From: Amphiscolops sp. MND2022
Taxonomy: Eukaryota
Direction of reading: 5' to 3'
Length of the DNA: 64,000 bases
Assembly (NCBI GenBank): GCA_964187785.1
Contig: OZ076409.1
Location: 16,122,001 to 16,186,000, forward strand
Under the pieces are notes generated by a model. It ran no database searches, had not been told where the DNA came from, and saw only the letters and a list, made by a program, of their open reading frames with translations. The translations under genes were made by a program, and so were the position numbers. Below are positions 19,076-56,213 of the stretch, one piece after another (the stretch's first letter is position 1; each line of letters begins with the position of its first letter).

Positions 19076-19660
19076 CTTCTTCGTGTTCAGACTCACTCGT
19101 TCGATCGGTCATTTGAGAATTTCTTATTCCATTCCATTGAAAGGGTGGTTTTTGACGTTTTGCTTGAGGTCGGTGCTAAAATTTTGTACTTAATTTTATC
19201 ACTTCATTAAATTTGTGCAAATAAAATAATTCACGTTTCTAGTATAAAATACATTCTATGTTGTATGTTGTTCGATGAATCTGAAATACAGATAACCGGT
19301 CAATAAAAAATGTGTTAACAAATTGATGTTTCAAATGATATTCTTGAAGCGGATGCCCATTGCGTTTTACTTTTAAGTCTCCGACAATACGGATTGCTAC
19401 TACTGTAACAGAATTTCAAGAATCAAATCGTATATATGGATGAATTAGACGAATGTTAAAGGTGCTGTGGCTTCACTCTTTATTTTAACTATTTATTCTT
19501 CAATTTTTAAAATAGTTTTTAATGTGCTTTGTCTTTTCCAGATGTTATTTTGATGGTATGCTGTGTCGCTGAGTCATCTCCACGGGTCTTCAGTGGAACC
19601 CCGCATCAGCCACCGGAAAGTGAAACAGTAATCAGCATATGTAAGTTATCAGTCGGAGCC

Positions 19661-22600: not shown

Positions 22601-23692
22601 ATAGTTGACGAGCGCTCTGAGAGAAGTCTCGAACAACCGAAACAAAAACGACGAAAGACTGCAATAGAGAGACTGATAGAGGAAACCTTTGATCAGGCGT
22701 CTCGAATGGGCAAGGAAACAAGTTTTGGAACTAATTCGAGTAGTACTTTGGAACCTCTATCACAACCCAATATACCAGACGATGAAGAAATTCTCAGAAA
22801 CTTCATCAAAGTAGGATTAGACATAGAAGATTGGAACTTTTTGAGGAAAGCGTTCTTTGAATTGGAATCTAACCCTGAGCTACACGGTGCACTTTGGACT
22901 GATTCTGCGTGCATACCCATAGCATCTCCTGAAAGATCCCACAAAAGAAGACAGCGCAACAATGTACAAAACGAAGAGAGTGCTCTTTCAGGTACCTGCT
23001 CAAGGTGTCGCATCTATGACAAGGGTAAGAAAACGTCGGGAAAAGGTAAAGCCACAGCTCCAAGGTCAACTTCCAAATCAGCCAGTCTGCAAGTGAGACA
23101 GGTGGACTATTCCAGTGAAAACGAAAGCAGACTTTCCCTCGCCTCTTCTACTTCCTCGACTGCGAAGTCACGTGGTGCTAGATTGGAACAAAGGCAGCTC
23201 ATGTCCATATCACACGCTGCTGAGTACGACTCGGAACTCATGAAATATAATCAGCTACACTTCAGGAAAAAGAAACTCACTTTCGGACGCAGCCGAATCC
23301 ACAACTGGGGATTATTCGCTTTGGAGGCAATTCCAGCAGACGAAATGGTTATCGAGTATGTGGGTCAAGTTATAAGACAGCAAGTAGCTGATAATCGAGA
23401 GAAAACTTACGAGAAAATTGGAATCGGCAGCAGTTATTTGTTCCGCATCGACAGTGACACCATTGTGGATGCGACTAAGTGTGGCAACTTTGGTCGATTC
23501 ATCAATCATTCTTGTACTCCAAATTGCACGGCCAAGATCCTCACTGTTGAAGACACCAAACGAATTGTCATATATTCCAAAGAGGACATTCCCGCCGGCG
23601 GTGAAATTACCTACGACTACAAATTCCCCATTGAGGACGACAAAATACCTTGCTTATGTGGCAGTCCTTTCTGTAGAGGATCTTTGAATTAG
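19661..23692 (+). CDS. SETD1: SET1/COMPASS histone H3K4 methyltransferase (intronless CDS)
   Basis: N-terminal YRILSDP...YRYDG, RRM, acidic linker, WIN-like CSRCR, SET ([23 protein letters not shown]) and post-[19 protein letters not shown] start inferred. Confidence 0.95.
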
Positions 23693-24439: not shown

Positions 24440-24787
24440 CTGCCAAGCAGAAGGACGTGGGTTCGAGTCTCGCCCTTGACCAAAAAATTTTTGTGCAGGT
24501 TATTTCGGCTTTGTGAGACTTTTTTTCACAAATTTTCTCAATGTCTCCAAAGGGTCCCCCTTCGATTTTTCCTTTTTGCAAAAGAATGGATGTTCAAAAA
24601 CCCCCAAAGGGCCCCCTTCTACATTTTTCGGCACTATGCGACTTACCGGTGACCAAAAAAATTCGGATTTTCTTTCAATTTTTTCCTCATGCGGGTACTG
24701 TAGAAGAGAATACTTGACACTTTGAAGTCCTTTTGCTATTTTTGAGCCTTATATATGGCGTCGACTTGGGCCGTTCCCAGCTTGTTC
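24440..24787 (+). mobile_element. Helentron-like non-autonomous element (HINE family), 3' part
   Basis: Ends GCGTCGACTTGGGCCGTTCCCAGCTTGTT like the other copies; CGGCACTATGCGACT internal repeat; B-box-like GGTTCGAGTC near the start. Confidence 0.65.
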
Positions 24788-24909
24788 GAATCAAGTTTTA
24801 ATATATGAATTTTGTAAGCTAAGCGTTTCATCTTGATTGAGGATGAGCTCTCGTTTTAAAAACTCATACACTTATTTCCTTGACGTTGCCTTATTGTTGT
24901 TTTCGTTAT

Positions 24910-25682: not shown

Positions 25683-26435
25683 ATGAGTGGTCCCAACGCT
25701 GCATCCAACAACCAGCCACCTGGTACTGTTTCTGCTATGAATGTGTTGAGTGAGCTGAACAGCGAGTTCGTCAAATCGTGGTATGACGTCGCCTGGACCA
25801 ACTTGAACCGGTCCAATGTGATGATGTATTTCACCCAACGATCGAACCCGTTTTACGACAGAAGATCCAACAATGAACTACTGCGTCATCCTCATAACAA
25901 ACCGATCGAACTCCTCAAAACTATGGTTGGTCTTGAATATGATCTCATATACGAGGAACCACCGATTCTTTTTGTCGTGCAAAAAAGACGAAGGCAGTCT
26001 CCAACACATGTAACTCCAATAGCGAATTATTACATCATCGCCGGTGTAGTTTATCGGGCTCCCGATTTAAATCGAATCTTGAGTTCCAGAATTGCGACAG
26101 CATGTGATTACCTGAACGAAGCCTTTCAGGATTTGTCTTCTTCAGTTGCGGAAGAAAATCAATCCTCAGACTCAAATCTAAACATAGCCTCACATAATCA
26201 AACGTCCGTGGGGGGTATCAGATCTATTTCGTCAGAGGTTGAAAAGTTAGAAGAAAGGAGTCGGTTAATAACTTCGTTCCAAACATACAGAGTTGATCAT
26301 TTGTTGAATATAATGGCTCAAACGTATACCCCTTCAAGTGAAGCAGCCGTGAAAACAGAAATCAAAGAACCCACCGATCTTATGGGTCCACCTGAAAACA
26401 AAAGAGGCAGACGCGATTCTCCTTCCAGAAGTTGA
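25683..26435 (+). CDS. MED6: Mediator complex subunit 6 (intronless CDS)
   Basis: SWYD..W...NVMMYFTQRSNPFYDRRSNNE, MVGLEY, PILFVVQK, YYIIAGVVYRAPDL match the MED6 family as I recall it. Confidence 0.92.
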   Translation: MSGPNAASNNQPPGTVSAMNVLSELNSEFVKSWYDVAWTNLNRSNVMMYFTQRSNPFYDRRSNNELLRHPHNKPIELLKTMVGLEYDLIYEEPPILFVVQKRRRQSPTHVTPIANYYIIAGVVYRAPDLNRILSSRIATACDYLNEAFQDLSSSVAEENQSSDSNLNIASHNQTSVGGIRSISSEVEKLEERSRLITSFQTYRVDHLLNIMAQTYTPSSEAAVKTEIKEPTDLMGPPENKRGRRDSPSRS

Positions 26436-27714: not shown

Positions 27715-29100
27715 TTGAGAGCCGGGTCTGCGTTTTTTTTGCGGCAGATCGTAAAAAACCTTTCAGCAAAAGTCATCGGAATGTTGACTTCAATAGTGTC
27801 GTTTTTACGGAAAACAGTTGTTACACTTGCGATAAGTAAGTGTTATGGGAAAGTGCGGGTGCTTTTTTTTCCGCGCGACAACTCTCTGATTTCACGCGGC
27901 AACTCGCACGTTTCACGCGTTCGTGGTCTAGTGGTAAGATGCTTGCTTTTCAACCCAGAGGTTTCGTGTTCGAACCCGTGGGTATGCGCTGATTTTTTTC
28001 AAGTATTGCGAAGCACAAGGTTCTGACTTTTTTCGGCACTATGAGACTTTTCGGCTTTGTGAGACTTTTTTCGGCTTTGTGAGACTTTTTTTTCGAAATT
28101 TTTCAAATGTCCCCAAAGAGTCCTCCTCTCAGTTTTTTTGATATTTTGCAAGAGAACGAATGTTAAAAATTCCCAAAGGGTCCCTTTTTTCAGAATTTTC
28201 GGCACTGTGCGACTGTTCAAGATTCTAATTTTTTTCAAAAATTTTTTAGACTCCCTTATTTTTTCAAAAATTTTTTAATGTCTCCAAAGCGTCTTCCTTT
28301 CAATTTTTTGATATCTTGCAACAGAACGAATGTTATAAAATCCTAAAGGGTCCCTTTTTACATTTTTCGGCACTATGCGACTTAGCGGAAACTTCAAAAA
28401 AATTCGGAAAATTTTTCTGAATTTTTAGTTTTAAAAGACCGTTTTTTTAAAGACCGATCTTTTTTCTATGCGACTTTTTTTAAAATTTGTTTTCACCGAC
28501 GCTCCTGCTCAATTTTTACAAGAAACGAAACGTTTTGCGAGAGGACTGCTCAAGGCTTTGCGACTTACCGGAGACCATCAAAAATGTTTTCGAAAAATTT
28601 TGAATTTTTTTCTATTTTCTGTAAGGTTTTCCGTTGAGAAAGTGGGTTTTTTGCTGTTTTCAGTTGGGGAAGAATGGTTTTCGAGGCTTACGCGTATCCC
28701 TTCGGGTATTTTTTGGCGCTGTAAAATTGATGAAATTTTAATCTCCTTTTACCCTTGGTTTTCCGTATGATATTGCTTATTTGGTTTTCAAAAGTTCGCA
28801 AGTGTTTGCGAAGCACGGCTTCGCCTCTGTGTTTAAATGGGTCGCCAGTTTCTGCAAATGCCAGCGGCAAGTTTTCTTGACCATTCATCTAGCACTCGGC
28901 TTTCTTTTTAAAGAAATTTCCCTCGTCTTTCGCATGATTTTTTTCTTCGTAACGTCCCAGGAGATGAAATCTGGCATGGGCTATTTTCGCCGCCGCTCCA
29001 AGAGCAGGTTTTCAAAGCAAGTTTTTGGCAATTTGGGACCCAAGAAAACAAAGTATGGTTTCTTAAGTAACTACCTGATAAACAACTTATGGTGATAAGT
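27715..29100 (+). repeat. Long member of the CGGCACT(A/G)TGCGACT interspersed repeat family
   Basis: Multiple ~150-170-bp internal units shared with the HINE copies; ends not resolved. Confidence 0.6.
27917..27988 (+). pseudogene. tRNA-derived (Glu-like) sequence embedded in a repeat
   Basis: A box TGGTCTAGTGG, TTC at the anticodon position, B box GTTCGAACC; stems poorly paired. Confidence 0.55.
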
Positions 29101-30832: not shown

Positions 30833-31186
30833 AGTAGTAGGAGAAATCCCGATTCGGGCCAACAAAACTCCAAAAATGAAAAGTCCCCAAAACCATTGAT
30901 TTTAAGCACTTTTTAGAAAACAGATCATTAAAATCAGGGGTTTTTCGATTCGGGCCAACCAACAAAAATTTCAAAAGCCTGCAAAGCTTCGCCAATACCC
31001 CCCTTAGAGACGGTGTTCCATACATTCTTCCAAAAACAAATCAGCGCGATAGCTACCGCAGCTTTGCACAAAATTGGCGTTTTTTACCATGAAGCATGAG
31101 ATTCTAACCTCTATGCTAAAACCAATGCAACGCTGGCTTCGCAATGCATTTTCTAATGCAATGTAAGAGCAATGCAATGTAAAAGC
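30833..31186 (+). repeat. Polinton left TIR (~354 bp)
   Basis: Near-identical reverse complement of 45409-45840. Confidence 0.95.
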
Positions 31187-31198
31187 GTCCAAGTAGAA

Positions 31199-31281
31199 CC
31201 AACGTTAATGTACAACCAACGTTAATGTACGGCCAACGTTAATTTACAGCCAACGTTAATGTACAACCAACGTTAATGTAC
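31199..31281 (+). repeat. 17-bp tandem repeat x5 next to the left TIR
   Basis: Unit CCAACGTTAATGTAC(A/G)(A/G). Confidence 0.95.
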
Positions 31282-31380
31282 CGGACTGTGTGCGTAGCTT
31301 CGCGTAATGCAAAATGAATTTCTACCATGCAAAATTCACTTCCGTTCGGAATTAATACAAGTAAAACTAACATTGATTCG

Positions 31381-31640
31381 TCTCCTATAGCTTAGTGGTT
31401 ATAGCATTGACTAAAGTTAAGGCTTCGGCCGGAGTGTTTGGGGTTCACTTCTAACCAACGTCCCCCTGTCTTTGTTATACCTTACATGCTATGGGAGAAC
31501 AATCACCAATGGCACAGTTCTTAAAAAGGATAATCCCTGCTGTGGAAACTCTTAGTGGAACGGACTCCCGATGGGCTTTGAGTTTACCATAGGCATGTCA
31601 ATGCGCGAAGCTGCGGGCATGCCTATGGGTTTTGTATTTT
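31381..31640 (+). ncRNA. Candidate structured, Pol III-type small RNA of the Polinton
   Basis: A-box TAGCTTAGTGG at +8; 11-bp closing stem 31381-31391/31488-31498; C(TTCG)G tetraloop; perfect 11-bp hairpin 31587-31628 followed by T runs. Confidence 0.4.
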
Positions 31641-31661
31641 TCAACTTTTTCATCTTAGTAA

Positions 31662-32465
31662 ATGTATGAAACTCCGTCTCTTCATAAGTTTGGTTATTCT
31701 AGTGAACAGCTAAAACTGAGGGAATATCAGGAGCTAAAAGATATGTTAAAAAGTCAAGAAAAATTAGCCCAAATAACCCATTCCAAATTAAAAGAAGATT
31801 TGCAACGCGAATTTGAAAATGACATAGAAAATCAAGTAGAAGAAAAAATGCTAGACGCGAAGCTGCACCAAACACTAGACCCACAGGAAGTTCAAAATGT
31901 TTTATTAAACACAAAGTTAATGAACGATATTTGTTCCCAGTTTTCAGACCTTTCAAAAACCATAAATAAGTTAGAACAAAGTATGAAAAAATCTTTCGCC
32001 GAACAAAGAACTGCTTTAGTAAATGAGGTACTAAATTTGATACACAACAATAGTTTTGAAATGTTAACACTCCGTAACCTAAAGTTTATGTCAACTCCGG
32101 GTCAAGCTGGAATGATTTTAAATGAAGATGAAATGTATAAACCTTTTAATGGTCTGCACGAGAATAAAATTACTATAACTAAAAACATAATTCAACTACT
32201 TTATGATAAAGGGTTATTTGATTCTTTTCCCAATAAAGATCAAGCATTTGAACAATACCTCACTTTCAGTGAAACCTATATAAAGGAAAAGTATGGAAAA
32301 ATAATACCTACTTCAGATGGTGAATATTACCTGTCTGATTTAGAATTTTCTGCCAGACAATCAATTCTGGAGTCATTGAAAAAAGATTCCTATAAAGACC
32401 TTGTTGATATGAAACATAGAATGAAATTAACACCAATGGAAATAAAATTCATTTTATATGATTAA
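31662..32465 (+). CDS. Polinton hypothetical protein (267 aa, N-terminal coiled coil)
   Basis: Intact ORF with TAAATG start; no recognisable family. Confidence 0.75.
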   Translation: MYETPSLHKFGYSSEQLKLREYQELKDMLKSQEKLAQITHSKLKEDLQREFENDIENQVEEKMLDAKLHQTLDPQEVQNVLLNTKLMNDICSQFSDLSKTINKLEQSMKKSFAEQRTALVNEVLNLIHNNSFEMLTLRNLKFMSTPGQAGMILNEDEMYKPFNGLHENKITITKNIIQLLYDKGLFDSFPNKDQAFEQYLTFSETYIKEKYGKIIPTSDGEYYLSDLEFSARQSILESLKKDSYKDLVDMKHRMKLTPMEIKFILYD

Positions 32466-32477
32466 TATGATTAATAA

Positions 32478-33170
32478 ATGGAACAAAAACTCTATCCCCC
32501 AACAGCTTCACTAATGACCCCCTCCGCACCATATGATGTAGAATCAATGATAAATAAGCAATTGCAAAACGAATTACAAAAAGTAAATAGTTTCAATAAT
32601 TCTATTCAAAACATTAGTCTAATGATGAAATATTATGAATTGGAAGAAAATAAATATAAGAAAAAATACACCAAATACAAGCTAATAAATAACCTAATTA
32701 ACTCCCTCGATGGCATTATAGTGATTGGAACAACTTCAGCATCCGTTACACTAAGTATTACTGGTGTGGGCATGATAGTTGTTCCAATCACTGCAGGAGT
32801 TGGTTGTGCAACTGGTATTCTTGTTAAAATTTGTTCCAGTTATTTGAAGAAAAAAGAGCAAAATTATAAACTTAAGTACGCTCTTATTCAGAAGACACTT
32901 GATGACTTTAGACAACTTTATATCACTAGCCTAAAAGATAATCATATAGATGAAAAAGAATACCAACGATTTGTGACTCAATTTGAAAATTATCGCGTAG
33001 CTTCGCACACAGCTTCACAGGCAGCTTCTCGTGCGACAGCTAACACCAGTTCACAAATTCAAGTAACAAACAAGCGTGATAACATGCGTGATAACAGGCG
33101 TGATAACTTGCGTGAAAACATACGTGATACACCAAAACCAAACAGTTTTTTTATTCAATTTGAACATTAA
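32478..33170 (+). CDS. Polinton membrane-active protein (adintovirus GasderminX-like)
   Basis: Lys-rich helix, hydrophobic Gly-rich hairpin (SVTLSITGVGMIVVPITAGVGCATGILV), then SLKDNHIDEKEY; family assigned from memory. Confidence 0.65.
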   Translation: MEQKLYPPTASLMTPSAPYDVESMINKQLQNELQKVNSFNNSIQNISLMMKYYELEENKYKKKYTKYKLINNLINSLDGIIVIGTTSASVTLSITGVGMIVVPITAGVGCATGILVKICSSYLKKKEQNYKLKYALIQKTLDDFRQLYITSLKDNHIDEKEYQRFVTQFENYRVASHTASQAASRATANTSSQIQVTNKRDNMRDNRRDNLRENIRDTPKPNSFFIQFEH

Positions 33171-33287
33171 TTTGAACATGAATTTTAACATAAAAAAGTA
33201 AAACTTAAACCATAAAATTAAATGAAAAATAACTCCAATTTTAAAGAAATATAAATGCTATTGAATTAATTTTTTTATAATAAAAGA

Positions 33288-36200
33288 ATGGACAACTGTA
33301 GTATTTGCAATTCTGATTATAAAAAAGCTTTCAAGTCTGATCATCTAAAAACAGTAAAACATTTACAAAAATTAAATCAATATTCTTGAAAAAAATGTAA
33401 TACTTTTATGCCATTGTCTGACAAGTCTAGACATCTAAATTCAGATGAACATAAAAACAAAACCAAACAACAACACATTTGGTGTGAAGATTTTGGTAAA
33501 TATATAAGTAATTCAAGACATTTCCAAAGTGAAATTCACACGTTAAGAAGTCAAAACCACCAAATTAATAAAATGCGCGAAGCGTGCCAGCTTTCGCCTT
33601 CAGTACGCAGTCTGGTGTAGACATAATTGTGAATGAAAAAACATACATTAAACTGAGAGTAAATCCAACAAATCATCTTGAAGAACAGATTAATGATTTA
33701 CTAAATAAAAATTACTTTCCCCGATACAAGTTCCAATTGAGTTATTTAGCTAAGTTTTCGAAATATGGTGAAGAAGAAGAAGTTGTATTTCACAAATGGG
33801 TTAAATCAGATTTAAATTACAATCACACAAACCTAAATGTTCATAATTCATTAATGCAGAAATTAGATGATGAACAATTAGAAGGATCAGGTTTTGTGTT
33901 AAACGGTATTGTCAATGTTATATAGAAATATATAAAGTCAATGATATTCAAGCTTCTTCGTGGGTTGAGTAGCCAATAAAATATAAGAATATTAAATCAA
34001 TTATAAATATAAAAAATGATCAATTTTGTTTTCTATGGTGCGTCCTAGCACACCTTTTTCCCGTTGAGGATCATAAAAATAGAACATCAAGTTATTCAAT
34101 GCGCACAAACAAACTCATTTTAAATGGTTTAGAATTCCCCTCGAACGTTAAAGATATTCCCAAGTTTGAAAACTTAGATAATTTAAACGTAAATGTTTTT
34201 GAACTCACAAATAGTGTGCTAACACCAATTCATTTTAATAAAGATTACTTACAACCACAAATTGACTTGCTGCTATTTGAAAATCATAATTGCGTAATAA
34301 CAAAGTTGCATTGCCTACTAAAAAAAGATTCACACATGAAATGGGTGTGTAGAAGTTGTCTAACAGCATTTAGTTCTGAGGATATTCTCAATCAACACAT
34401 TGACCGTTGTCAAAAACAGCAACCAACTAATATCACATTCAGTTGGAAGGATCATTTAAAGTTCGAAGATTATCATATAAAAGTTCCCGTACCAATAAGA
34501 GTATATGCAGATTTCGAATGTATTAATCAACCCGCAGAGCTTCGCACAGATATCCCCAAAGGTGACCGCAAAGCTGCGCCCAAAGTATTATATAAACAAA
34601 TTCCAATTGCAGTAGGATTTTATCTAATTTCACCATTTGGCAATAATAACAGCTCATACTTTGGAGTATATTGTGTAACATGGTTTGTGAATGAAATGTT
34701 GACTTTAGAAGAATTGGCATCGGAATATTTCGAAACTAATATTCCTCTTGAAATAACCCCCGAAGAAGAAGAATCATTTCAACAATCCAAAGTGTGTTGG
34801 ATGTGTGAGAATCCACTCGGTGATGGCGAAGCTACGCGCGAAGCTACGCAAAAAGTTAGAGACCACGATCTTCTTACAGGCAAGTACCGAGGAGCAGCTC
34901 ACAACAAATGCAATCGAAATTGTAAACAAAAGTCAAGTTTGTTTGTTCCCATATTTTTCCACAATTTTAGTGGTTATGATTGCCACCTAATTTTTGAAGA
35001 ACTCTTAACACAAGCTTACAAAATGGGGTGTGAACCAAAAATTATCCCAAAGTCAATGGAAGTCTATATAAGTGTGCAAGTAGGTTGTTTAAGGTTTTTG
35101 GACTCATACCGTTTTCTAAATAGTAGTTTGGACAAACTAATGAAGAGTATGCAAAGCGGTGCAAATAATTTTCCCATCATGACACTAGAAGGGATGAGTG
35201 ATGAATTATTTAAAAAGAAATTGGCTTATCCTTATGAATACTTTACACACAATAATTTTCAAGAACCATTAAATCTAAGTCCACAAGACTTTTGGTCAAC
35301 ACTAAAACAAACAACTCCAAGTCTTGAAGAAATTAACCGAACACAATAAATTATTAAAAAGTTTAACGTAAAGAACGGACAAGAATTAACGGAATTGTAC
35401 CTCAAAATGGATTATCTACAATTAGCTGAATTATTCGAAAACTTTTTCGAGAAGGCTACACTTGAATACAACATTAATCCTTTGTACTCCTTTTCTCTAC
35501 CTGGGTATACATGGAAAGCTGGTTTAAAACCTACTATCATTAAATTAGATTTCATAAAAGATAAAGACCTACTATTACTACTTGAAAATAATATTCGTGG
35601 AGGAATTTCAAGTGTAATGGGACCTCGTTACATTGAGTCAGACACCAACACTAAATTACTGTACATTGATGCAAATAATCTTTATGGATGGGCAATGAGT
35701 CAATACCTTCCTACTGGAGACTTTAAAAAGATGCGGAGCTTCGCAAAGTTCGGTTGTGACAATGATGAATTACTTATAGATGAAATTAAAGAAGACATTT
35801 TGAATACACCAGATGACTGTGCTTATGGATACTTTATAGAATGTGATTTAGAAAATCCAGCAGAAATTAAAGAAAAAACTGAAAACTTTCCACTTTGTCC
35901 TTATCAAACAAAAGCAGATCCAGACTTATCCTCAGGTTATATGAACAGTGTAAAACAACCCAACTACAAACCAACCAAGAAACTTTTGTGTGACCTAACA
36001 AACAAATATAATTATATGATGCACTACAGGATGTTCAAGTTTTACACGAATTTGGGGATGAAAGTAACACACATTCGTACAATCTACAGATTCAAACAAT
36101 CACTTTGGTTAGAAAAATACATTAATCATAACACACAAAAACGCACCAAAGCAAAAACAAACTTCGAAAAAGATCTGTACAAATTGATGAACAACGCTTT

Positions 36201-37119
36201 CTTTGGTAGGACTATGGAAAATGTAAGAGAAAGAGTTAACTTAGAGATTATCCCCCACACCAATATTGATCAAATAATTAAAAGACAATCCAAGTTAAGC
36301 TTTAAAGGTATTGTAAATCATTACTCCGAATTCAGCGTTTATGAATATGAAAAAGAAAAGACAGTCTTTGATAAACCAATTTACTTGGGATTCTCTGTTT
36401 TAGAACTGAGTAAATTGTTAATATATGAGTTTTATTGTCACAAATTACAACCATACCACAGTTCGAGTGTCAAACTGCATTACATGGATACAGACTCATT
36501 CATTCTAAGTATTAAAACTGGAGACCTTATAAATGATTTGGAATACTTCAAAGATGATTTTGATTTCAGCGAGCTCGACGAAAATCATGAGTTGTATGAT
36601 ACTATTAACAAGAAAGTTATAGATAAAATGAAAATAGAAACATCACCAATTATTGAATTAGACAACTTCGTAGCTTTGAGATCTAAATCATATTCTTTTA
36701 GTTACAAAAATGCGCAAAATACAGTTCAGAAGTCAAAACAAAAAGGAATACAAAATACACCACCCTACACACAGTTTTTAAATTCATTATTTAATTCTGA
36801 AACGACAACTGCAACTAATTATTCTATCCGTTCGGATGCTCACAGTTTAACTGTTCAGAAACAAAACAACCTAGCTTTGAATTCTTTTGGTGACAAGCGT
36901 GTGTACTTAAATCCAATACAAAGTTTATCATGGGATAAACACGTACAAAGTGGTGATTGTCCTTGTATATATTGTTTGAAATTAGTGAGTTTGTATTATA
37001 AAGAATTAAATGATGGATTGAGTGATGAAGAAATATACTATAACATTTGGACTCTGAAACAAAAATTGAATCATCAACAGCTTTTAAATCTGATAATTGA
37101 TCGGGCACATCTTTTATAA
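33288..37119 (+). pseudogene. Protein-primed family B DNA polymerase (pPolB), disrupted
   Basis: Exo YADFE, FHNFSGYD, YLKMD; Pol YIDANNLYG, KLMNNAFFG, YMDTDSF; endonuclease VII-like RDHD..TGKYRGAAHNKCN; lesions at ~33387, ~33600, ~33925, ~33970 and 35347. Confidence 0.93.
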
Positions 37120-37277
37120 TTATAATTTGTGTGAAATCAATATTTAGATACTTTATTATTATCATCATTTCATAAAAGGATAGTCTTAAAAATTTATCAT
37201 TTTATAGAAAGACAGTATTATAAATATCATCATTATTTTATAAATTTATTATTACATTCAGTATTATAAAATGAGTA

Positions 37278-38530
37278 TTATAGAAGGTCAAAATGCCTTT
37301 GTCCATCACTACTAATACTTATTAGTTTTGGGGTTAGAACTAGTGCATAAGCTATATAGTCTGCTACATCAATGGCAGCACTAAATTTAAATTCTAAACG
37401 GATTGGTTGACTGGCAATATGATCTTTTTGTTTGGATAGGTCAAATATATAAAAATTATAATTTGTTCTGAAGTTGTGCAAATCAATAAATGGATTGAGT
37501 AAGTTAGTTTCAGTTTTTAACTGTTAAAAGTTTTCAATTTCACTGTATGCTTGATCATATTTGTCGCAGTGGTAGTCACATTCTATTCCATCATCGGGAT
37601 ATTTTTCTGATCCTATTTTACAAACAGCATTTGAAATCGGAAGTCTATCAAACACTGCATTATCATGTGTTTGTGAATCAAGTTTATTTCTAGCTTGAAA
37701 TCCGACAATAACGAATGTTGGTGTCGATTGCGCAGCTTCACCACCCGAGTTACCTAATTCAAATGTCCATGAATTATTCGTGTTAACATCTTTTCTAAAG
37801 ACTGTACGTTTGGTATAAAACAACTCGGTTGGATCTTCATTCAGGAGCTGATCCATGACAAGTTGTTGGTTTTCTAAGCTAGGAACATAGTGTGGAAAGT
37901 ACCAAGAAATGTCTTTAATATCTATTTTTGCAGCATCCACCCCATTCCCCCTGAAAATCGCGTCATTGTTGTTGTTACGTTTTAGAGTTAAGGTATAGCC
38001 CAACCCATAAGTTATTTTTTCTTGATCAGCAGATCCAAACAAGTCTTTTAGTTTTATTCTCACAAAAAAGGTTCCTTTCTCATTTTTGTTGTTTGTTAGT
38101 TCTTGTCTTCTGATGGTAGTACTTTCATCAAACCCATACAATAACTGGGAAGTTTGACCACCACTTGTCAAAAGTTTATACATTAAACTAATTGGGTGCA
38201 AGTTGTCAACTTTTTCCAGGTGTTTACCCGAACTTGTAGTTAATTTGGCTTCACTAAACAAAGCAACGGGCCCAAAATTAACCAAGCCTATTTCATCGTT
38301 GTTGGCATATCTTGTATTATTGTTTTTAAGTACTTCAATTTCTAGACTAATGTATGATTTTGTAAACATATGTATGCATCTTCTCTTGGCAAACTGATAC
38401 TTACATTCGAGTTTGCGTTATTGATTGTCGCTAAACTACTGGGACTATATTTTATAAAATCAATTTTATGAATAGGTTTCTCAAGAGTGTATTTATTTTT
38501 CAAAGAAAACATTGTATCATTGAAAATCAT
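37278..38530 (-). pseudogene. Polinton major capsid protein (double jelly-roll), disrupted
   Basis: Three ORF pieces (frameshift ~38355, in-frame stop at 37524); PTFVIVGFQ, NAVCKIGSEKYP, FYIFDLSKQ typical of Polinton MCP. Confidence 0.85.
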
Positions 38531-38554
38531 TTATAATAAAAAATTTTTGGAAAA

Positions 38555-39454
38555 TTACTCCATTTTGAAGAAAACATTCATACTTTCTAACGTTTTGTTG
38601 TTAGAGTCAAAGTTGAATATGCTTCTTAAAAGTTCTTGTTCATTGTATTTTCCTTGATTAATTTCTCCGTTTTCATCATTTAGAGTGTATGTTACAGTGT
38701 TCGTTGAATTAATGCTGTGTATTTTGAAAAGTTCTCTATTCCAATTTGTTGTATAACCTTTTGAATAAATGTTTCGTTTGTCAGGAACTCTTACAAATTC
38801 TCCCACTTGGAAATTGGCGAAGCTGCGGTAGCTATCGCGCGGAATTTTTTTGTTATTATTAATTTTATTGCTAGGAAGTAAACTGTTATTACTGGCTTCA
38901 ATTGGTGTCATTTTTGTTGTACCATGCACCCTATTATTATACTTATCCAAAGCATTATTAGTGTGATTCAACCAGTTACCTTTACCTTCAATGTACATTG
39001 GTTCTTTAATTAAGTCCAGAAGTGTTCTATTGAAACGTTCAACAAAAACAGCCTTCAAATCTGAATTAGTTGACTAAATTTGAATGTTTTGCTCTTTTAA
39101 ATAGTGTAAAAATGTTGTGTTGTAAAACTCTTTACCTCTATCCGACCAAATTTTATGAGGTTTTCTTTTACTAGTTTCCAATAAATTCTTGAATGCAGCA
39201 GTTGTACTTTTTCCTGATTTATCTTTGAGAGGAATCGCCCATGCATATTTGGTATGATTGTCAATTATTGTGAAAATAAACCTGTAGTTTTTGTTGTTTT
39301 TGCTTAAGCTTGAGCGATCAATTAAATCGATACTCCAACACTCATCTTTATAGTGAGTTTGTATTTGAATTCTTTGAAACTTTTTGATTACAGGAGAGAA
39401 TATTTCTTTAGCAATCTGCTCTTTGCGAAGCTCCGCCTTTTGATTCATGTTCAT
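38555..39454 (-). pseudogene. Retroviral-like (rve) integrase with one in-frame stop
   Basis: DDE motifs WSIDLID, IWSDRGKEF, VERFNRT; C-terminal FQVGEFVR...KGYTTNW; TAG at 39074-39076. Confidence 0.93.
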
Positions 39455-39477
39455 TTATAACAATTTTTTATAAATAA

Positions 39478-39660
39478 ATGAATAATGAATATAGCTTGAA
39501 AGATGATGGCGAGAGCTGGCACAGGGCCTCCGGGCAAAGCTGCGCCAAGGCCGCCAACAAACTGCACTGGTTTCAGAAAACACGAATCTATAAAGTAATC
39601 ACAAATCCAATGTTTATTGTATGTTTAATTTTATTTATATGTATTGTTGTTGCAATATAG
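39478..39660 (+). CDS. Small membrane protein (60 aa), possibly a frameshifted N-terminus of ATPase 1
   Basis: TAAATG start; C-terminal hydrophobic MFIVCLILFICIVVAI; overlaps the ATPase ORF in another frame. Confidence 0.55.
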   Translation: MNNEYSLKDDGESWHRASGQSCAKAANKLHWFQKTRIYKVITNPMFIVCLILFICIVVAI

Positions 39661-40651
39661 GAATTATATTCGCCCTAGACAGTTTAAAACAATTTATAAA
39701 AAACTACTACAATTTGCAGGGTTCAAATACTCTCATCTGACAAACCAGGAAATTAAAGAATCCCGTTTTGATATGGGATTGGGACTTCCCAAAGATGCGC
39801 ATAGCAACTCTCATTTCATAATCTATGGCAGTAGTGGCTCTGGGAAGACATCTTTTTTAAAGCATTATTTAGCACACACTCCACGCACTTACGTAGTTTT
39901 CGGGCGAGATATACGTGAGTTTCCCTCTCAAAATTTTGTACCTTTACTGCAGTTGGAGAATGTTAGTATTGAACAACTTGCTAATAAGATTGTTATACTG
40001 GATGATGCAGGTGCATACAAAAGTCTCAAAACAAAAGTAGAAGACTTATTTAGATATGGTAGACATCACCAGATTCAAGTAATTTATCTCGCTCACTATG
40101 CAAAGGATGTTCTTCCAATCGTGAGGGAAAACTGTCACAAAATATTTCTAACAATTAATAACCCAGATAACTTCTTCGAGTCAATTGTACAAACTTATGC
40201 TATATCTCCCGCAGTTAAGGACGGGCTTAATTGGAAATACTACCGGGATCAGTTAGAATATGGCATATTTGAATTTGACACAAGGTGTCAGAAGTACAAG
40301 GTATTAAACAACAAATACATAATAATTTATGATTCTAGTAAACAGAATAAGTGGGGCCCAGAACAACTCGTTGCTTATGAATGTTACTTTTTCACTGGTG
40401 ATGAATACAACAGATTGAAAATATTTTTAGAGGAAATGTCCGACCAGACAATTGAAACAACACCACTCAACATAGCTTATTATTATGTAGCCTATTGCAA
40501 ACAAAAGAATATTAAAGTGAATGAATCCAAAATAGACAACTACGTTGAGCGTATGCAACAACCACTAATTAGTGACTCAGTTAAAGAGGACTTCAAGAAA
40601 ATTATATATGATCATGCAAAAATTTTTACTAAAAATAAACTGAGTAATTAA
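39644..40651 (+). CDS. A32/FtsK-like packaging ATPase 1 (start uncertain; first ATG at 39773)
   Basis: Walker A GSSGSGKT, Walker B IVILDD, RYGRH motif, VREN. Confidence 0.88.
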   Translation: MLLQYRNYIRPRQFKTIYKKLLQFAGFKYSHLTNQEIKESRFDMGLGLPKDAHSNSHFIIYGSSGSGKTSFLKHYLAHTPRTYVVFGRDIREFPSQNFVPLLQLENVSIEQLANKIVILDDAGAYKSLKTKVEDLFRYGRHHQIQVIYLAHYAKDVLPIVRENCHKIFLTINNPDNFFESIVQTYAISPAVKDGLNWKYYRDQLEYGIFEFDTRCQKYKVLNNKYIIIYDSSKQNKWGPEQLVAYECYFFTGDEYNRLKIFLEEMSDQTIETTPLNIAYYYVAYCKQKNIKVNESKIDNYVERMQQPLISDSVKEDFKKIIYDHAKIFTKNKLSN

Positions 40652-40695
40652 CAAGAAATTAGCGAGAAATTAACAACAAATTAACGAAAAAAATG

Positions 40696-40955
40696 TAGTG
40701 ATTCTTAGAGGAATTTAGTGATTCTTAGTGATGAAATTCTTAGTGATTCTTAGTGATTCTTAGTGATTTTTAGAGATTCAATAATTTCTCTAAGAATTAA
40801 TAAGAGACCCCTTCTTAGAGAAATTTAGAGAAGTTAGTGATTCTTAACACACTTAAAGAGACTTAGTGATTCTTAGAGATTTAACTTTGTGGTTCTTAGT
40901 GATTCTTAGTGATGAGATTCTTGGTGATTCTTAGTGATTCTTAGAGGAATTTAAA
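40696..40955 (+). repeat. 10-bp minisatellite (TTAGTGATTC)n between the two ATPases
   Basis: More than a dozen exact or degenerate units. Confidence 0.9.
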
Positions 40956-40972
40956 GATTTTTCTCTAAATAA

Positions 40973-42021
40973 ATGAAGTGCATAATTTGTAATGAAAGTT
41001 GTGAAAAATCATTATGTGATGATTGCTCTAGTAAAAAAAGATGTAAAGAGTGTAATAAAATGAAGACAGATTCCAATACAAATTTTTATAAGTATAAAAA
41101 CGGTAAAATGTACAGTACATGTATAGAATGTTTTAATAAGAAGGTGAGGTGTGAATTTTGTAATAAGGAATTAAATAAAAGTTATTCAAGGTCACATATC
41201 AAAAAGCAACATGTGCAGCGTCATATGCAGCGCCATGTTCAATATGCTCCGCCACAGCACTTACAGGGCTACGCGCAGGGCTTCCCGCAGAGCTATGCGC
41301 GGGGCTCCGCACAGGGCCATGCACAAGATTATATTAATATTAAAGATTCTTTCAAATGTGCTACCAATGATATCACCAACCCCAATGATGATGATGCGGA
41401 AGCTAACGCTAATGATGTATTACAACATTATAGTACATTATTAGTTGGTCCACCATTTTGTGGTAAAACTCATTTGTTATTAAACAAATTACAATTAATT
41501 CGATTGAGTGATAGTGAAAAACAAATACATATCTTTACGAGAAGTCCTGAACAATATAAAGATGTGGGGATGAAACTGGATGTTTGGGATTTAGTAGTGG
41601 AAGAAGATTTAGGTGATAAAAGTATTCAAGACTTTCAAAATTGTTGTGTTGTGTTTGATGACATGTTAGACTCCAATCAGAATCTAATAGATCCATTTTT
41701 AATAGAGGAAGACACAAGTTGTGATGTTCATTATTTAAGTCAGAGTTACTTTGAGGTACCCAAAAGAATAATCAGAAACAATTCAAATACAATAATCCTA
41801 TTTCAACAAACCTTGTAAGATGTTGAACACATTTAAAGAGATATTGCTGGTTTTGATATGTCTTATGATGAATTCAAAAGTTTGTGTAGAAAGGCATGGA
41901 AAGAAAAATACAACTACTTAATAATAAATAGGTTAGAAGATAAAAATGGGAGTAAACACCAGGTGTGCAATGAATCTAATCCAAATTACATGATCTTCAA
42001 TCCACAAGCGGATCCTTTCTA
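40973..42021 (+). pseudogene. Zinc-finger-fused A32/FtsK-like ATPase 2, disrupted
   Basis: N-terminal CxxC pairs and C2H2; Walker A GPPFCGKT, Walker B VVFDD; RGRH in a shifted frame at ~41704; SQSYF..PKRIIRNN; stops at 41816 and ~41833. Confidence 0.85.
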
Positions 42022-42027
42022 AATAAT

Positions 42028-43206
42028 TCATACATTGCATGCTGTGATAAGGTTGCTCTGCGTGGAACTTCGTATATTTTGGTGTTGAGAAGGTGATATG
42101 CATTCATACTCCAGGAGTTTATCTATAATTGCAACAATTTGTTCATTAATCGGAAAACTATCATTTCCTCCAACTTTTTCAAAATAAAGTAGTTTCAATT
42201 GATCCACTAATTCGTCTGGATCAGATGGGAGGAAGTTGTACTGTTGTGTGGAGCTTCGCGCGTGGCTTCGCGCACACCCCTGCGCAGCTACGCGCAATCC
42301 ACTTCCCAATTGGCTTCCTGATTGGCTTCCCAACTGGTTTCCTTGTGTGTTGTCCATAGAGCTTTGTGGATAGCCATGTGAAGACCCCTGTGTATAGTCC
42401 TGTGGAGGCTCTTGCGAAGCTACGCGCGAAGGCTCCTGCACATAACCCTGTGAATCATGTGCCTGCAATTGATAGCGAGAGTATAATTCTTCAATAAATT
42501 GATATCTGGTTGATTTTTGATCTCCACAATTTAGATCATATTTCATATCATTTAGGAAGTTATAAATTGGGCTCCAGTTATTTATTGGTTTGTCAAATTG
42601 TGTATTAGTTATAAAATATTGAAGATCTGGGTGATTTAAATTGCATGAATTCCCATTCTCGAAAGTCATTGTTGAACCTTTGATTAGTACTTGTTGTGGG
42701 TTATGGGGATTAATTGTGAATAAATTTGCAGAGCTGCGCGCGGAGCTACGCGGATAACCTTCTATGGGTTCTAAACTAAATTGACTTTTGTTTTTGTCAT
42801 TAAGTAAATTAGAAACTGTTTTTACAATACTAGAATCAACCTGGTCGGAATTAACAAGGCTCGTAAGAAGCTGATTGCGAAGCTCCGCATTATGATTTAT
42901 ACTTTCATTATATTGTTTTATTCCTTCTTTAATAGAATTTTGAAGAGTATTATTATTGCGTTCTATTGCTCTTGTCTGATTTTCAAGTGCCTGTGTAACC
43001 CCTTGGGTTTGTTTGTCAATGGCTTGTAGTTGCTTTTCATTTGATTCCACCTGCTTTGTAGTAACAGGTTCAAAAACTTCTTCCATATCGTAATGAAAGT
43101 CTTGCTTCCCTAGTTTCTCTTTTAATCTTTCTTTGCGCAGTAAAGATTTTGTTTCTTGTATTTTTTTTAATTTTTCCAAGTCATCCCGATTATGAATTGA
43201 ATACAT
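42028..43206 (-). CDS. Conserved Polinton hypothetical protein (392 aa)
   Basis: C-terminal LPSDPDELVDQLKLL...GGN...NEQIVAIIDKLLE, a motif I recall from Polinton ORFs; internal 4-aa repeats. Confidence 0.75.
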   Translation of the reverse strand: MYSIHNRDDLEKLKKIQETKSLLRKERLKEKLGKQDFHYDMEEVFEPVTTKQVESNEKQLQAIDKQTQGVTQALENQTRAIERNNNTLQNSIKEGIKQYNESINHNAELRNQLLTSLVNSDQVDSSIVKTVSNLLNDKNKSQFSLEPIEGYPRSSARSSANLFTINPHNPQQVLIKGSTMTFENGNSCNLNHPDLQYFITNTQFDKPINNWSPIYNFLNDMKYDLNCGDQKSTRYQFIEELYSRYQLQAHDSQGYVQEPSRVASQEPPQDYTQGSSHGYPQSSMDNTQGNQLGSQSGSQLGSGLRVAAQGCARSHARSSTQQYNFLPSDPDELVDQLKLLYFEKVGGNDSFPINEQIVAIIDKLLEYECISPSQHQNIRSSTQSNLITACNV

Positions 43207-43232
43207 TTATTGAATTTATTTAATGAATAAAA

Positions 43233-43691
43233 CTAATGGATTTTCCTCAGATACAGGCCTTTACCCCCTTTACTTGCTTTGCCTGCTTTGCTGCCTGCGT
43301 TGCCCGACAAACCTTCAGCTTTGTATAACCCCTTCCCTTGATGTACAAATTTAATGACTTCGGGTGCAGTTGCAGCAATGAGTTTTGGATTTTTACTTGC
43401 TGCTGCAGTTCCAATATTTGCTGCTATTTCCAATGCACGGCCTGGATTATTGAGTATTTTCTTTACGATACTCTTGGCAGCTTTGCGCAAGTTTTTGAAT
43501 AAGTCGTCCAATCCTTCCCCATTTATTGTTCGATCTGATACAATAAGACTTTTATTTCTGCTACACATCATACAGGTGCCCCGTAACTTTTTTACATTAT
43601 TGTTTCTAATATCTCCATGAATATTTGTGGTGGGGGAATAATGTTTTCCACCAACACAATATGAATTATTCATAAGTTTATTATACCTCAT
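43233..43691 (-). CDS. Small basic protein with Cys motif and amphipathic helix (Cupiennin/adenovirus protein VI-like)
   Basis: YC...GTCMMC, then GEGLDDLFKNLRKAAKSIVKKIL; xGxG motifs resembling adenain cleavage sites. Confidence 0.6.
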   Translation of the reverse strand: MRYNKLMNNSYCVGGKHYSPTTNIHGDIRNNNVKKLRGTCMMCSRNKSLIVSDRTINGEGLDDLFKNLRKAAKSIVKKILNNPGRALEIAANIGTAAASKNPKLIAATAPEVIKFVHQGKGLYKAEGLSGNAGSKAGKASKGGKGLYLRKIH

Positions 43692-43730
43692 TTATTATTA
43701 TTAAATCTAAGTTAATTAATTTTAAATTAA

Positions 43731-44737
43731 TTAAATCTCGATAATTTGAATTGTGAAGGTGAGTGTCTCCCCGTTGAAATCAACTGGGTTGTGGTTAGAG
43801 TCCTCAAGGAAAAATTGAATGGTGTCCAGTCGTGTTTTGTTTATCAGCTTGTACAAAACAGTTGTGGGTTCTTTTATAATTTTATATCCGGGAGGTGCGC
43901 TTAAATTGAAAGAAAATAAAATTTGTTCTCGTATACCATTAACATTTGAACCATTTACGCAGTCGCACTTCAGATGAACTTTGTCGGTGGTTGTTATCAT
44001 GACTGGTTTTTCTGAAGTGTGAGTTCCGGATGGGTAATCACGTTGTGTAAAACCCAGGACTTTGTTAAGTTCGGAGTTAAAATGAATAGGGTTTGAGGTT
44101 GTTAAAATTGATTTCATTGATACTGTGTCGGGTATTATGTTGAATTTAAAATCAGAATCAGTAGTTCTTTGTTTTACGGAAGCATTGATACCAACTAATT
44201 CATTTGCTCCTGGTACTAACTGTATTCCAAAGGAATCATGTTCAATTTCAAAGTCAGGATTATGTATTTGTTGATCAGGATAGTTAAAAACTTCAATTAA
44301 TTCCTTGAGTTGGTTAAAGTCTTTTCTAGTAAGTTTTTTTTCTTTTTAATATAACTATTAGTTATAAGTGCATTAGTTTTTTCTATAAATTTATCATCAG
44401 ATGTTTCATACAAGAGATGTATATTTGGCACTAATTCAGTGTCAACTCTATGCTCTTCGAGTTGTTGTTTTGTTAGAAGAATTTCAAGTTTGTTATTCTT
44501 TTCAGTAATGTTATATACAGTGTTGTATACTTCCAAACTTGTTACTCCCATCATCCATTTTTCAGGTAATTCCAATGAAACATCAAATGAGAAAGATTCT
44601 TTTTGCTTAGTCATTTTAAATTCTAGTGTTTCTTGTGATTTAGAATGAGTATTTTCAACAATTTCTTGATTAGATTTTGCAATACTTAAAAGAAGAGATT
44701 CTTTTTTATCATATGTTACGAAGGTTGATAGTTCCAT
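43731..44737 (-). pseudogene. Polinton minor capsid protein (penton), frameshifted at the A-run near 44335
   Basis: GVTSLEVYNTVYNITEKNN, LVPGANEL, VHLKCDCVNGS, ILFSFNLSAPPGYKIIKEP, NPVDFNGE. Confidence 0.85.
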
Positions 44738-44781
44738 TTATTAGAAAAAAATCTTTTTTCTAAGCTGCGTGGAGCTCCGCA

Positions 44782-44970
44782 TTATACTTGAAATTGTTTA
44801 AATCCACTAGCGGAAATGTTATTCAAAAATTCTTGCCTATCTTTTGATAATGTTTTCTTATGTGGCTTTGCTGTATTTTTTCCATGATTTTGATTTTGAT
44901 TGTGAAGCTGTTCTGCGAAGCTGTGCGAGATAATTTTATATTGAGCTGAATAATTATTAATTTTCTTCAT
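44782..44970 (-). CDS. Small Polinton hypothetical protein (62 aa)
   Basis: TAAATG start; lies between the protease and penton genes. Confidence 0.5.
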   Translation of the reverse strand: MKKINNYSAQYKIISHSFAEQLHNQNQNHGKNTAKPHKKTLSKDRQEFLNNISASGFKQFQV

Positions 44971-44977
44971 TTATTAT

Positions 44978-45369
44978 TCATAAATTTTGGTAGTATAAAT
45001 TTAGTACTGCATTTTTGAACCCTAAAATTTGTGTGAGATACAGTGTGTATAAACAATACGCCGCGCAATAACTGTCGTTGGTCTGAATTTGATGTTTTGA
45101 ATAAATACCATTATTAATGTGATTAAGTATATTAGTTGGGGGTGGGCATCCATATGAATCAAAATAATTTTGATTTGTAAACATAACCCAATGTGTTCCT
45201 TTAATTGGATGTAAGTTAACTATACCACTGTAGTGTTAAACTTATCATCTCTCGTGTATATTGCACACGGAATATTTGATTCAGTAAGTATTTTTTTTAT
45301 TTTTTTAGAAGTTGCTTCGTTTTTTAGTCCGTTTTTTTCAACAAATTCTTTGAATGATAAACAATTCAT
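44978..45369 (-). pseudogene. Adenain-like cysteine protease, frameshifted
   Basis: Catalytic motifs GTHWV (His), FDSYG (Asp), IQ...YCAAYCL (Gln, Cys); ATG at 45369. Confidence 0.88.
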
Positions 45370-45408
45370 TTATTAGTTATTTCTCATTGTTATGTGTGAA
45401 TACTCATT

Positions 45409-45840
45409 GCTTTTACATTGCATTGCTCTTACATTGCATTAGAAAATGCATTGCGAAGCCAGCTTTGCATTGTTTTCAGCATAGAGGTTAGAATCTCATG
45501 CTTCATGGTAAAAAACGCCAATTTTGTGCAAAGCTGCGGTAGCTATCGTGCTGATTTGTTTTTGGAAGAATGTATGAAACTCCGTCTCTAAAGGGGGGGT
45601 ATTGGCGAAGCTTTGCAGGCTTTTGAAACTTTTGTTGGTTGGCCCGAATCGAAAAACCCCTGATTTTAATGATCTGTTTTCTAAAAAGTGGATTAAATCA
45701 ATGGTTTTGGGGACTTAGCCCGAATCGAAAAACCCCTGATTTTAATGATCTGTTTTCTAAAAAGTGCTTAAACTCAATGGTTTTGGGGACTTTTCATTTT
45801 TGGAGTTTTGTTGGCCCGAATCGGGATTTCTCCTACTACT
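45409..45840 (-). repeat. Polinton right TIR (~432 bp, includes a ~76-bp tandem duplication)
   Basis: Mirror of the left TIR; 45642-45716 is repeated at 45718-45792. Confidence 0.95.
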
Positions 45841-49164: not shown

Positions 49165-49878
49165 GTAGGAAATGAATTGCACGCAGTTCTGTTGATTTTA
49201 CCATTTGGGGGAACAAAACGGAAACGTCTCAAAGGCTCAAAAGGAGCAAACTTTTAAAGATATGCTCAGGACTTTTTTAAATGAAAAACTCAAAAAAAAC
49301 ACTCAAAGGGTTCCTTTAATGCTCGGAAAACGCATCAGTAGTTCGGATATAGCGTCCTGAGACAGATGCGAGTGCTTTGTTTTCGAACCACTGCCTCCTC
49401 CTTAGTAAAAGGCAATATGGTTCGGATACAACTTCAAAAATTCGCATATGCCGCATAATTTTCGAAACTCCACCACCTCCAAAATTCGGATAGTATTGCA
49501 AAAATTATCGTTGGATATTCATTGAGAAAACCTAATATCAGACAAAAAATGATAAGGTCAAAAAAATGTAAAAGGGGGACCATTTGGGATTCTTTAACAT
49601 CCTTCCTGTTGCAAAATATTAAAACAAACCTTTCGAAACATTGTAAAGTTTCCGGGAAAAAACGAAAATTGAGAATATTAAACAGTGTCACAGTGCCAAA
49701 AAATGTAAAAGGGGAGACCCTATGGGTCTTTTTACTATCCACATTCTAATGCAAAATATCAAAAAATTGAAGGGGTACCCTTTGGTGCAATCAGAAAGAT
49801 TCCGAAAAAAGTCTCATAGATTCCGAAAATAGTCTCATAGTACCGAAAAAGTTCGCAGTTCAAGTTGATCAAATGAAT

Positions 49879-50405: not shown

Positions 50406-50489
50406 AAAGTGGCTAAAAACTATACAGGGCTAAAAAACTACCCACTGTAAGAGTCGGGAATTTTCTTCAAAAGTGCCGACTAAAAAATG

Positions 50490-51830: not shown

Positions 51831-51869
51831 AATAGAATATTGGACCTTGGAAAATGAACTATTATTGAT

Positions 51870-56031: not shown

Positions 56032-56213
56032 CAGTTTTCCGTCAAATTTCGGAGTGCAAAGGAAATTGGAGAGTTTTATAATAAATGTTTTGAAGAGAAA
56101 TGAATATGAATAAACCTATGATATCATAGGTTTGTTCATATTCATTTCTCTTCATAACATTTATTATAAAACTCTACAATTTCCTTTGCACTCCGAAATT
56201 TGACGGAAAACTG
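56032..56213. repeat. Spacerless palindrome with 91-bp arms
   Basis: Centre CCTATGAT|ATCATAGG at 56122/56123; 3 mismatches. Confidence 0.97.

Follow-up and report, generated by a model that had tools for sequence, protein, structure and literature searches.

Polintons, which are relatives of the adenoviruses, occur widely in the genomes of animals, and they have been annotated almost solely by their proteins. Among repeats that carry Pol III promoters, tRNA-derived SINEs join a head of tRNA type, bearing both an A and a B box, to an unrelated body of about 250 nt. The VA RNA of adenoviruses is hypothesized, in section 3.1 of PMC7589676, to stem from a tRNA gene, and the part of that article devoted to it describes binding to PKR and cutting by Dicer. 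For the TMERs of MHV68, the part of PMC4337559 on virulence describes restoration by the tRNA-like portion alone. In addition, intact tRNA genes occur in polinton-like viruses, virophages and MELD viruses (relevant parts of PMC12220804 and PMC8502044), and such captures thereby bring in Pol III promoters.

An earlier note had proposed that a structured RNA analogous to VA RNA is encoded by a Polinton in the 64-kb window, meaning the entire stretch of DNA that was analyzed. This proposal holds to the extent that the locus reads as a type 2 Pol III unit in which both the A box and the B box agree with the VA RNA I/II consensus in 10 of 11 positions, but by its defining features the predicted RNA is not a VA RNA. 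On balance, the stretch from 31380 to 31633 is probably a tRNA-derived Pol III RNA gene that belongs to the Polinton and that arose from the captured 5' half of a tRNA.

The host Polinton and its left end

The element carries AGTAGT at both termini (30833 and 45840), produced a target duplication of 6 bp, and has TIRs that are identical at 346 of 354 aligned bases. Its genes match pPolB, an rve integrase, an A32 (Pox_A32) ATPase and a double jelly-roll capsid protein. The pPolB match falls under the Pfam cut-off, yet a protein search returned 13,636 relatives. The pPolB, integrase and capsid genes are fragmented, so this copy is degraded. The (AGT)2 TIR ends and the 6-bp target duplication, along with the pPolB, rve, ATPase and DJR genes, identify the element as a Polinton/Maverick, and the TIR, (AGT)2 and duplication criteria follow those given in the relevant part of PMC8097293.

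The left end is ordered as TIR (to 31186), 17-bp repeats, 100 bp of spacer, the candidate at 31381-31634, and ORF1 from 31662 (Table 1). The candidate is located about 195 bp inward of the left TIR, which ends at 31186, and not within the TIR. The 17-bp unit is absent inside the right TIR, and the five units just inside the left TIR might constitute a promoter or origin array. Repeats of 10 bp also occupy positions 40694-40969, between the ATPase gene and the next ORF, with a hairpin of 14-bp stem at 40783-40825.

Table 1. Coordinates of the Polinton, its left-end features and the elements of the candidate RNA gene (P, predicted pairing probability)
Feature	Position	Strand	Remarks
Polinton/Maverick (adintovirus-type) element	30833..45840	.	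15,008 bp; degraded copy
Left TIR	30833..31186	+	Partner 45409-45840, itself with a ~76-bp internal duplication
Five copies of 17-bp tandem unit	31194..31281	+	Left end only
Predicted ~254-nt Pol III transcript	31380..31633	+	A and B boxes; first T4 at 31630; strand-specific z
Domain I	31381..31498	+	11-bp closing stem, 31381-91/31488-98, P 0.99
tRNA D-arm / A box	31388..31406	+	Letter-for-letter tRNA positions 8-26
Irregular stem of domain I	31397-31411/31468-31481	+	P 0.71-0.99; leads into junction
UUCG hairpin in domain I junction	31421-31430	+	P 0.78
B box	31442..31452	+	55 nt past A box; differs once from the tRNA consensus (tRNA position 58)
Hairpin, 6-bp stem	31513..31544	+	P 0.74
Hairpin, three stacked short stems	31546..31585	+	P 0.97-0.99
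3' hairpin, 13-bp stem, 16-nt loop	31587..31628	+	P 0.99
12-bp GCGAAGC-core unit	31604..31615	+	In loop of 3' hairpin; likely not RNA-specific
T4, T5 and T5 runs	31630..31658	+	Predicted Pol III terminators; runs at 31630, 31637 and 31646
ORF1	31662..32465	+	267 aa

The start methionine of ORF1 is common to all 120 of its best 120 relatives, and searches with ORF1 gave no Pfam, PHROG or Atlas match. The first 40 residues are nearly invariant in the relatives. The first 21 nt of the ORF (31661-31681) form an inverted copy of TIR sequence, matching 45569-45589 in the right TIR at 21 of 21 positions and 31006-31026 in the left TIR at 19 of 21. This copy could pair with a transcript initiated in the TIR or could be a shared protein-binding site.

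A TAAATG start is found in nine of 14 element ORFs (31662, 32478, 38530, 39454, 39478, 40973, 43206, 43691 and 44737), where 14 of the 15 element ORF starts were taken into the count. These starts, which often read AATAAATG, resemble the poxvirus late initiator or an overlapping polyadenylation signal. The candidate stretch contains eight ATGs and ORF1 has the usual TAAATG start, so the stretch need not be the leader of ORF1. None of the five short ORFs over the stretch was found in the protein collection, and the region is not considered to be coding.

Several other features of the window were recorded. Genes of the host for a GHMP kinase, a Set1-type protein and Med6 (17906-19075, 19553-23692 and 25683-26435) are single long ORFs, and two of these three have a pyrimidine tract and CAG 8-10 nt before the ATG, which suggests leader (trans-)splicing. 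The Med6 protein marks the host as an animal, its nearest matches being mammalian chains. Positions 493-6884 hold the ORFs of a BEL/Pao LTR retrotransposon, and a 24-bp tandem array lies at 77-532. Long near-perfect palindromes with arms of 91, 57 and 51 nt, which are MITE- or Helitron-like, are located at 56032-56213 and 58203-58417, and they are related to dispersed repeats at 24500-24800, 28000-28400 and 48100-52300.

Predicted promoter, terminator and fold

The tRNA-type A box noted earlier at +8 of the candidate is present at 31388 and agrees with the eukaryotic consensus TRGYNNARNNG at 11 of 11 positions. The likeness to tRNA is clearer than had been claimed, as it extends over an entire D-arm rather than the A box alone. 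Among GTDB genomes, the 19-mer of the D-arm has seven exact matches, every one located at tRNA position 8. These matches were recognized as tRNAs by ARAGORN (four), by Rfam (one), as a truncated duplicate of a called tRNA (one) or by eye (one). Furthermore, the D-arm starts exactly 7 bases past the first base of the closing stem, a distance equal to the length of an acceptor strand.

The weak B-box-like site of the earlier note is also present, at 31442. It is near-consensus, with 10 of 11 positions matching the human tRNA consensus, and the base seen at position 58 is permitted by the VA RNA I/II consensus in Table 1 of PMC12498455. At +55 the site is within the range of 40-65 nt downstream of the A box that is characteristic of type 2 promoters, but its profile score is weak and position 58 is deviant. 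This score is below those of 23 of the 25 training tRNAs, all of which are prokaryotic.

The profile for the A and B boxes was built from 25 unrelated prokaryotic tRNAs, after one of 41 was dropped for carrying the 19-mer and 15 of the remaining 40 could not be parsed. When both strands of the window were scored, position 31388 ranked first with 27.3 bits, and the runner-up (21.7 bits) was a tRNA-like locus of the host at 27924. That locus (27917-27995) scores 21.4 bits with the Rfam tRNA model, under the cut-off, is missed by ARAGORN, has a consensus B box and ends in T7. It might be a pseudogene, a divergent tRNA or a SINE head.

Shuffles of the element reached the profile score of the candidate in none of 500 trials, and reached the A-box/D-arm score alone in seven of 500. 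By a rule-based test, a D-arm with a B box arose in five of 300 shuffles, and in none of 300 once a stem in register was also required. The search rules were fixed after the candidate had been seen, and these shuffle counts are somewhat generous because the tests were designed at that stage.

The 3' stems and T runs described earlier were all located (stems at 31513/31540, 31546/31580 and 31587/31618). The first T4 past the A box is at 31630, and none is present in the preceding 242 bases. A T4-free span of that length is unremarkable alone, since shuffling the stretch gave one in 288 of 1000 trials. This T4 begins one base past the 13-bp hairpin, with two T5 runs behind it, and this register is the best for any of the 369 T4 runs in the element, just two of which have a stem of at least 9 bp upstream. 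The other of these sites, at 37326, was considered as a second unit of this type and was rejected, since the region folds at z -0.31 and no boxes there are among the top sites.

Transcription would probably start at G31380, judging by the A-box offset and a pyrimidine-purine context. A species of about 120 or 250 nt had been expected. The layout fits a length of about 254 nt, but a primary transcript of about 120 nt is not predicted because no T4 follows the stem that closes at that distance. Thus, the layout predicts a single Pol III RNA of about 254 nt rather than one of 120 nt.

The predicted secondary structure includes the terminal stem that had been proposed, with its arms starting at 31381 and 31488. 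The sequences of three inner hairpins are likewise at the reported sites, but only the UUCG hairpin is favored by the fold, whereas those at 31407-31420 (P ~0.006) and 31442-31456 (P ~0.05) are not. Instead, the closing stem is prolonged into an irregular helix for a total of about 24 pairs, which had been overlooked, and imposing the hairpins of the earlier note costs 4 kcal/mol. The B-box region pairs weakly (P ≤ ~0.3). A fold constrained to a cloverleaf is 14.7 kcal/mol worse, with a D stem of P ~0. Pairing between the 5' and 3' ends of the 254-mer was also considered and rejected, as it is 17.6 kcal/mol worse.

Folding z-scores are -3.48 for the 260-nt stretch, -3.32 for its first 120 nt and -3.34 for its last 136 nt. 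The expectation that the stretch folds better than shuffled sequence is borne out by the first of these values, but this depends on window ends set at the stem, since z becomes -0.12 when the window is moved by 8 nt. The fold is strand-specific: the plus strand, on which both boxes lie, has a z-score of -3.48, the minus strand one of -0.44, and folding as DNA gives -2.05. When the element was scanned with sliding windows, the halves of the stretch came 5th and 7th among 99 non-overlapping loci, and the 254-nt window came about 6th of 42. Several coding regions of the Polinton fold equally well or better, and folding stability alone would not pick out 31381-31634 in the element. The reading of this locus as a candidate gene for a structured RNA with a type 2 Pol III promoter is supported by the promoter, the terminator and the strand-specific folding, all in register.

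Relatives and alternative explanations

The ORF1 family comprises at least 287 clusters at E 0.001 or better, with the best 120 at 81-100% identity, a size that would suffice for testing covariation if the DNA of its members were available. Searches of the viral, metagenome and prokaryotic-genome collections with ORF1, ORF2, pPolB and DNA patterns found no DNA from close copies of the family. When the stop-free frame of the region was used in a protein search, there was one match, P0408, which is encoded on another contig. This match agrees at 24 of 27 codons across 31509-31589, after which it resembles the frame of 31619-31639, and thus the 3' half of the stretch is not private to the copy in the window. 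Its three changes are in the weakly paired segment 31524-31538, with none in the 17 codons over 31539-31589, and its last hairpin is shortened and altered. However, P0408 is a single copy picked by word match, and the sample is biased in that the gene call there needs loss of the stop codon in the hairpin. We consider this copy to be weak evidence either way.

More distant pPolB loci were also collected, 104 from scans of viral and metagenome sequences (for metagenomes, nine of 64 parts, with 80 of 340 loci kept) plus six more. These 110 loci have 29-42% protein identity, and no homologue of the candidate was found among them, which is a weak test because both TIRs are present in only two of the 110 and most lack the relevant end. 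The 104 scanned loci contain no tRNAs, none of their 14 D-arm-like sites is accompanied by a B box, and blastn never gave a match better than E 0.9. None of the 104 reaches the profile score of the candidate. The best two sites (26.2 and 24.3 bits), both at locus L109, were set aside because they are inside ORFs. The six further loci yielded one weak D-arm and B-box site, on the minus strand of L142. In loci L142-L147, pPolB genes of the Polinton type occur on contigs that binning assigned to prokaryotic genomes, probably through host or viral contamination.

The 12-bp motif reported earlier in the loop of the 3' hairpin is indeed there, but it is an element-wide variable unit and provides no argument for RNA function. 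There are 16 occurrences of GCGAAGCT in the Polinton versus one in the 49 kb outside. The motif lies inside ORFs in both orientations, and other sites include 31857, 33000, 34826-34838, 42253-42265 and 42414. Because of the two orientations, an antisense action of the loop motif on mRNAs of the element was rejected. At the motif site in ORF1, 88 of 119 parsed relatives have 3, 7 or 11 residues (37, 22 and 29 relatives, respectively), corresponding to one to three in-frame 12-bp units of four residues each. The 12-bp unit might be a very small insert that spreads by itself and is confined to this Polinton family. Its GCGAAGC core, known as an unusually stable DNA mini-hairpin, is rare in the 104 distant loci (38 in 774 kb).

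The explanation that best survives as an alternative to a Polinton RNA gene, albeit an unlikely one, is that a tRNA-derived SINE head or a tRNA pseudogene landed in an ancestor of the Polinton family and persists as a passenger with relic boxes and partly incidental folding. The D-arm and B box are at class II tRNA spacing and the B box is weak, as such a relic might show, and decayed tRNA-like sequence is present 3.4 kb away in host DNA. That the folding of the candidate is not exceptional within the element also fits. However, no second copy was found in the 49 kb of host DNA in the window, flanking duplications are no longer than 6-mers, and the tail is T-rich rather than A-rich. A relic would not be expected to have a closing stem that is in register with tRNA position 1, nor a hairpin aligned in the same way to the terminator.

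More unlikely still is that the sequence acts in cis, on ORF1 or on the end of the element. tDNA can have boundary activity, and the locus might be a tDNA-like boundary or promoter bound by TFIIIC. Alternatively, it might be a structured intron, outron or leader of ORF1 in which the T-rich tail is the 3' splice acceptor. The strand-specific fold and the hairpin-T4 register are not needed for either function, no counterpart of the locus at the right end is among the top-scoring profile sites, and the TAAATG start of ORF1 is shared with most genes of the element. These points are to be set against the fact that the candidate is on the ORF1 strand and ends 28 nt upstream of the ATG. In addition, the tail at 31630-31658 is also a pyrimidine tract with an AG three bases before this ATG, as in two of three host genes examined, and a donor-like GTAAGA is present at 31163, within the TIR. 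A Pol III RNA and a role in cis for ORF1 can coexist.

We regard it as very improbable that the RNA is a TMER-like precursor in which RNase Z would cut a 7-bp acceptor-like stem after 31499, releasing a tRNA mimic of about 119 nt and small RNAs from the 3' hairpins. The longest 3' hairpin here, at 13 bp and 42 nt, is short for a pre-miRNA. Although tRNA positions 1-7 can pair with 31492-31498 and hairpins follow, the cloverleaf penalty given above and the negligible D-stem probability argue against such a precursor, as does a broken T stem, and processing of this type is unlikely because there is no T arm. The position at the element's left end does resemble that of the MHV68 TMERs as described in part of PMC4337559. 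Least likely of all is a chance origin, as AT-rich spacer that happens to contain such motifs and hairpins, or a set of single-stranded DNA hairpins that serves replication. The well-folding coding regions, the z-score as DNA and the after-the-fact tests speak for this reading. The shuffles (0/500 and 0/300) and the preference for one strand when folded as RNA speak against it.

Proposed function and comparison with known systems

If the candidate is a Polinton RNA gene as we propose, established Pol III biology suggests that TFIIIC would bind the A and B boxes and that TFIIIB would be loaded upstream. Host Pol III would then start at about G31380 and stop at the first T run, yielding one RNA of about 254 nt, whose level should rise with Polinton copy number. 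The tRNA part would be kept as a promoter and no longer as a tRNA fold. In the predicted product, a long and irregular 5' duplex includes a small junction and is followed by three 3' hairpins and a UUU end. VA RNA, EBER and TMER suggest, by analogy, that it might act whole as an abundant dsRNA-like decoy for host defense proteins that bind dsRNA, such as Dicer. Such a function is a real possibility, if somewhat short of probable, provided that the RNA is made, and it is doubtful overall. We also entertain the broader speculation, itself rather doubtful, that the Polintons of animals carry genes for small Pol III RNAs of their own, in which captured tRNA halves have been turned into non-tRNA folds that blunt host dsRNA or RNAi defense. 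These RNAs might be independent or ancestral counterparts of VA RNA, and the locus might be a living intermediate between tRNA and VA RNA.

Earlier surveys would miss units of this kind because both ARAGORN and Rfam miss 31380-31633. In the literature covered, which lay largely outside subscription papers, a non-tRNA Pol III RNA in a Polinton has not been reported, and items S11-S12 of PMC12220804 (PLV ncRNAs) may bear on this. The text of a vertebrate Maverick survey covered by a term search (part of PMC8097293) does not mention tRNA or non-coding RNA.

Membership of the candidate in the VA RNA, tRNA, TMER and vault RNA classes was considered and rejected in each case, as it fails defining features of all four. 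A tRNA gene specifies a cloverleaf with a 7-nt anticodon loop and a T arm, whereas the candidate has a 4-nt loop at that place and disfavors the cloverleaf. Neither ARAGORN (0 calls) nor Rfam reports a tRNA gene in it. The tRNAs of polinton-like viruses, virophages and MELD viruses are detectable by ARAGORN and Rfam, but the candidate no longer has an anticodon loop or a T arm. It resembles a tRNA-derived SINE in the tRNA-type head with its two boxes and the unrelated body of about 250 nt, and differs in having no A-rich tail, no target duplication and no second copy in the 64-kb window.

Vault RNA is similar in having an A box near the 5' end, a degenerate B box and a panhandle that closes a domain of about 120 nt (relevant part of PMC8824774). 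However, the A-box flank of the candidate diverges after three bases, a T run is absent within 150 nt, and there is no match to RF00006. Other Rfam matches to the candidate are at chance level (CRISPR-DR52, E 0.79; RAGATH-11, E 0.26).

The MHV68 TMERs likewise join, within a single Pol III unit of comparable size, a tRNA-derived 5' part to 3' hairpins, and they lie at a DNA virus genome's left end (relevant parts of PMC4337559 and PMC8223928). They form a cloverleaf and number eight units, whereas the candidate is a single unit with a broken T arm and no predicted cloverleaf. The 3' stem-loops of TMERs are pre-miRNAs that yield miRNAs; hairpins exist in the candidate, but the longest is 13 bp and 42 nt.

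Comparison with VA RNA reveals points on both sides. The Rfam VA model finds no match in the candidate up to E 10. VA RNA is about 160 nt long with U4 directly past the terminal stem, whereas the candidate is about 254 nt, its stem closes at 31498, and the T4 lies 131 nt beyond. VA RNA has a central GGGU-ACCC pair; the candidate has GGGT at 31441 and 31627, and ACCC is absent from 31381-31634. Box B of VA RNA is in a long stable apical stem that has no equivalent in the weakly paired B-box region here. Three extra 3' hairpins are not found in VA RNA, and the host here is a non-model animal. On the other hand, the candidate shares with VA RNA I and II the location of both boxes inside the gene, a T4 terminator backed by further T runs and a proposed tRNA origin. 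The A box is within the terminal stem in both (here, 31388-31391 in the 11-bp stem), and both are located just upstream of a protein gene in related virus lineages. A unit that keeps an exact tRNA D-arm and yet folds as a long stem would illustrate the route from tRNA to VA RNA.
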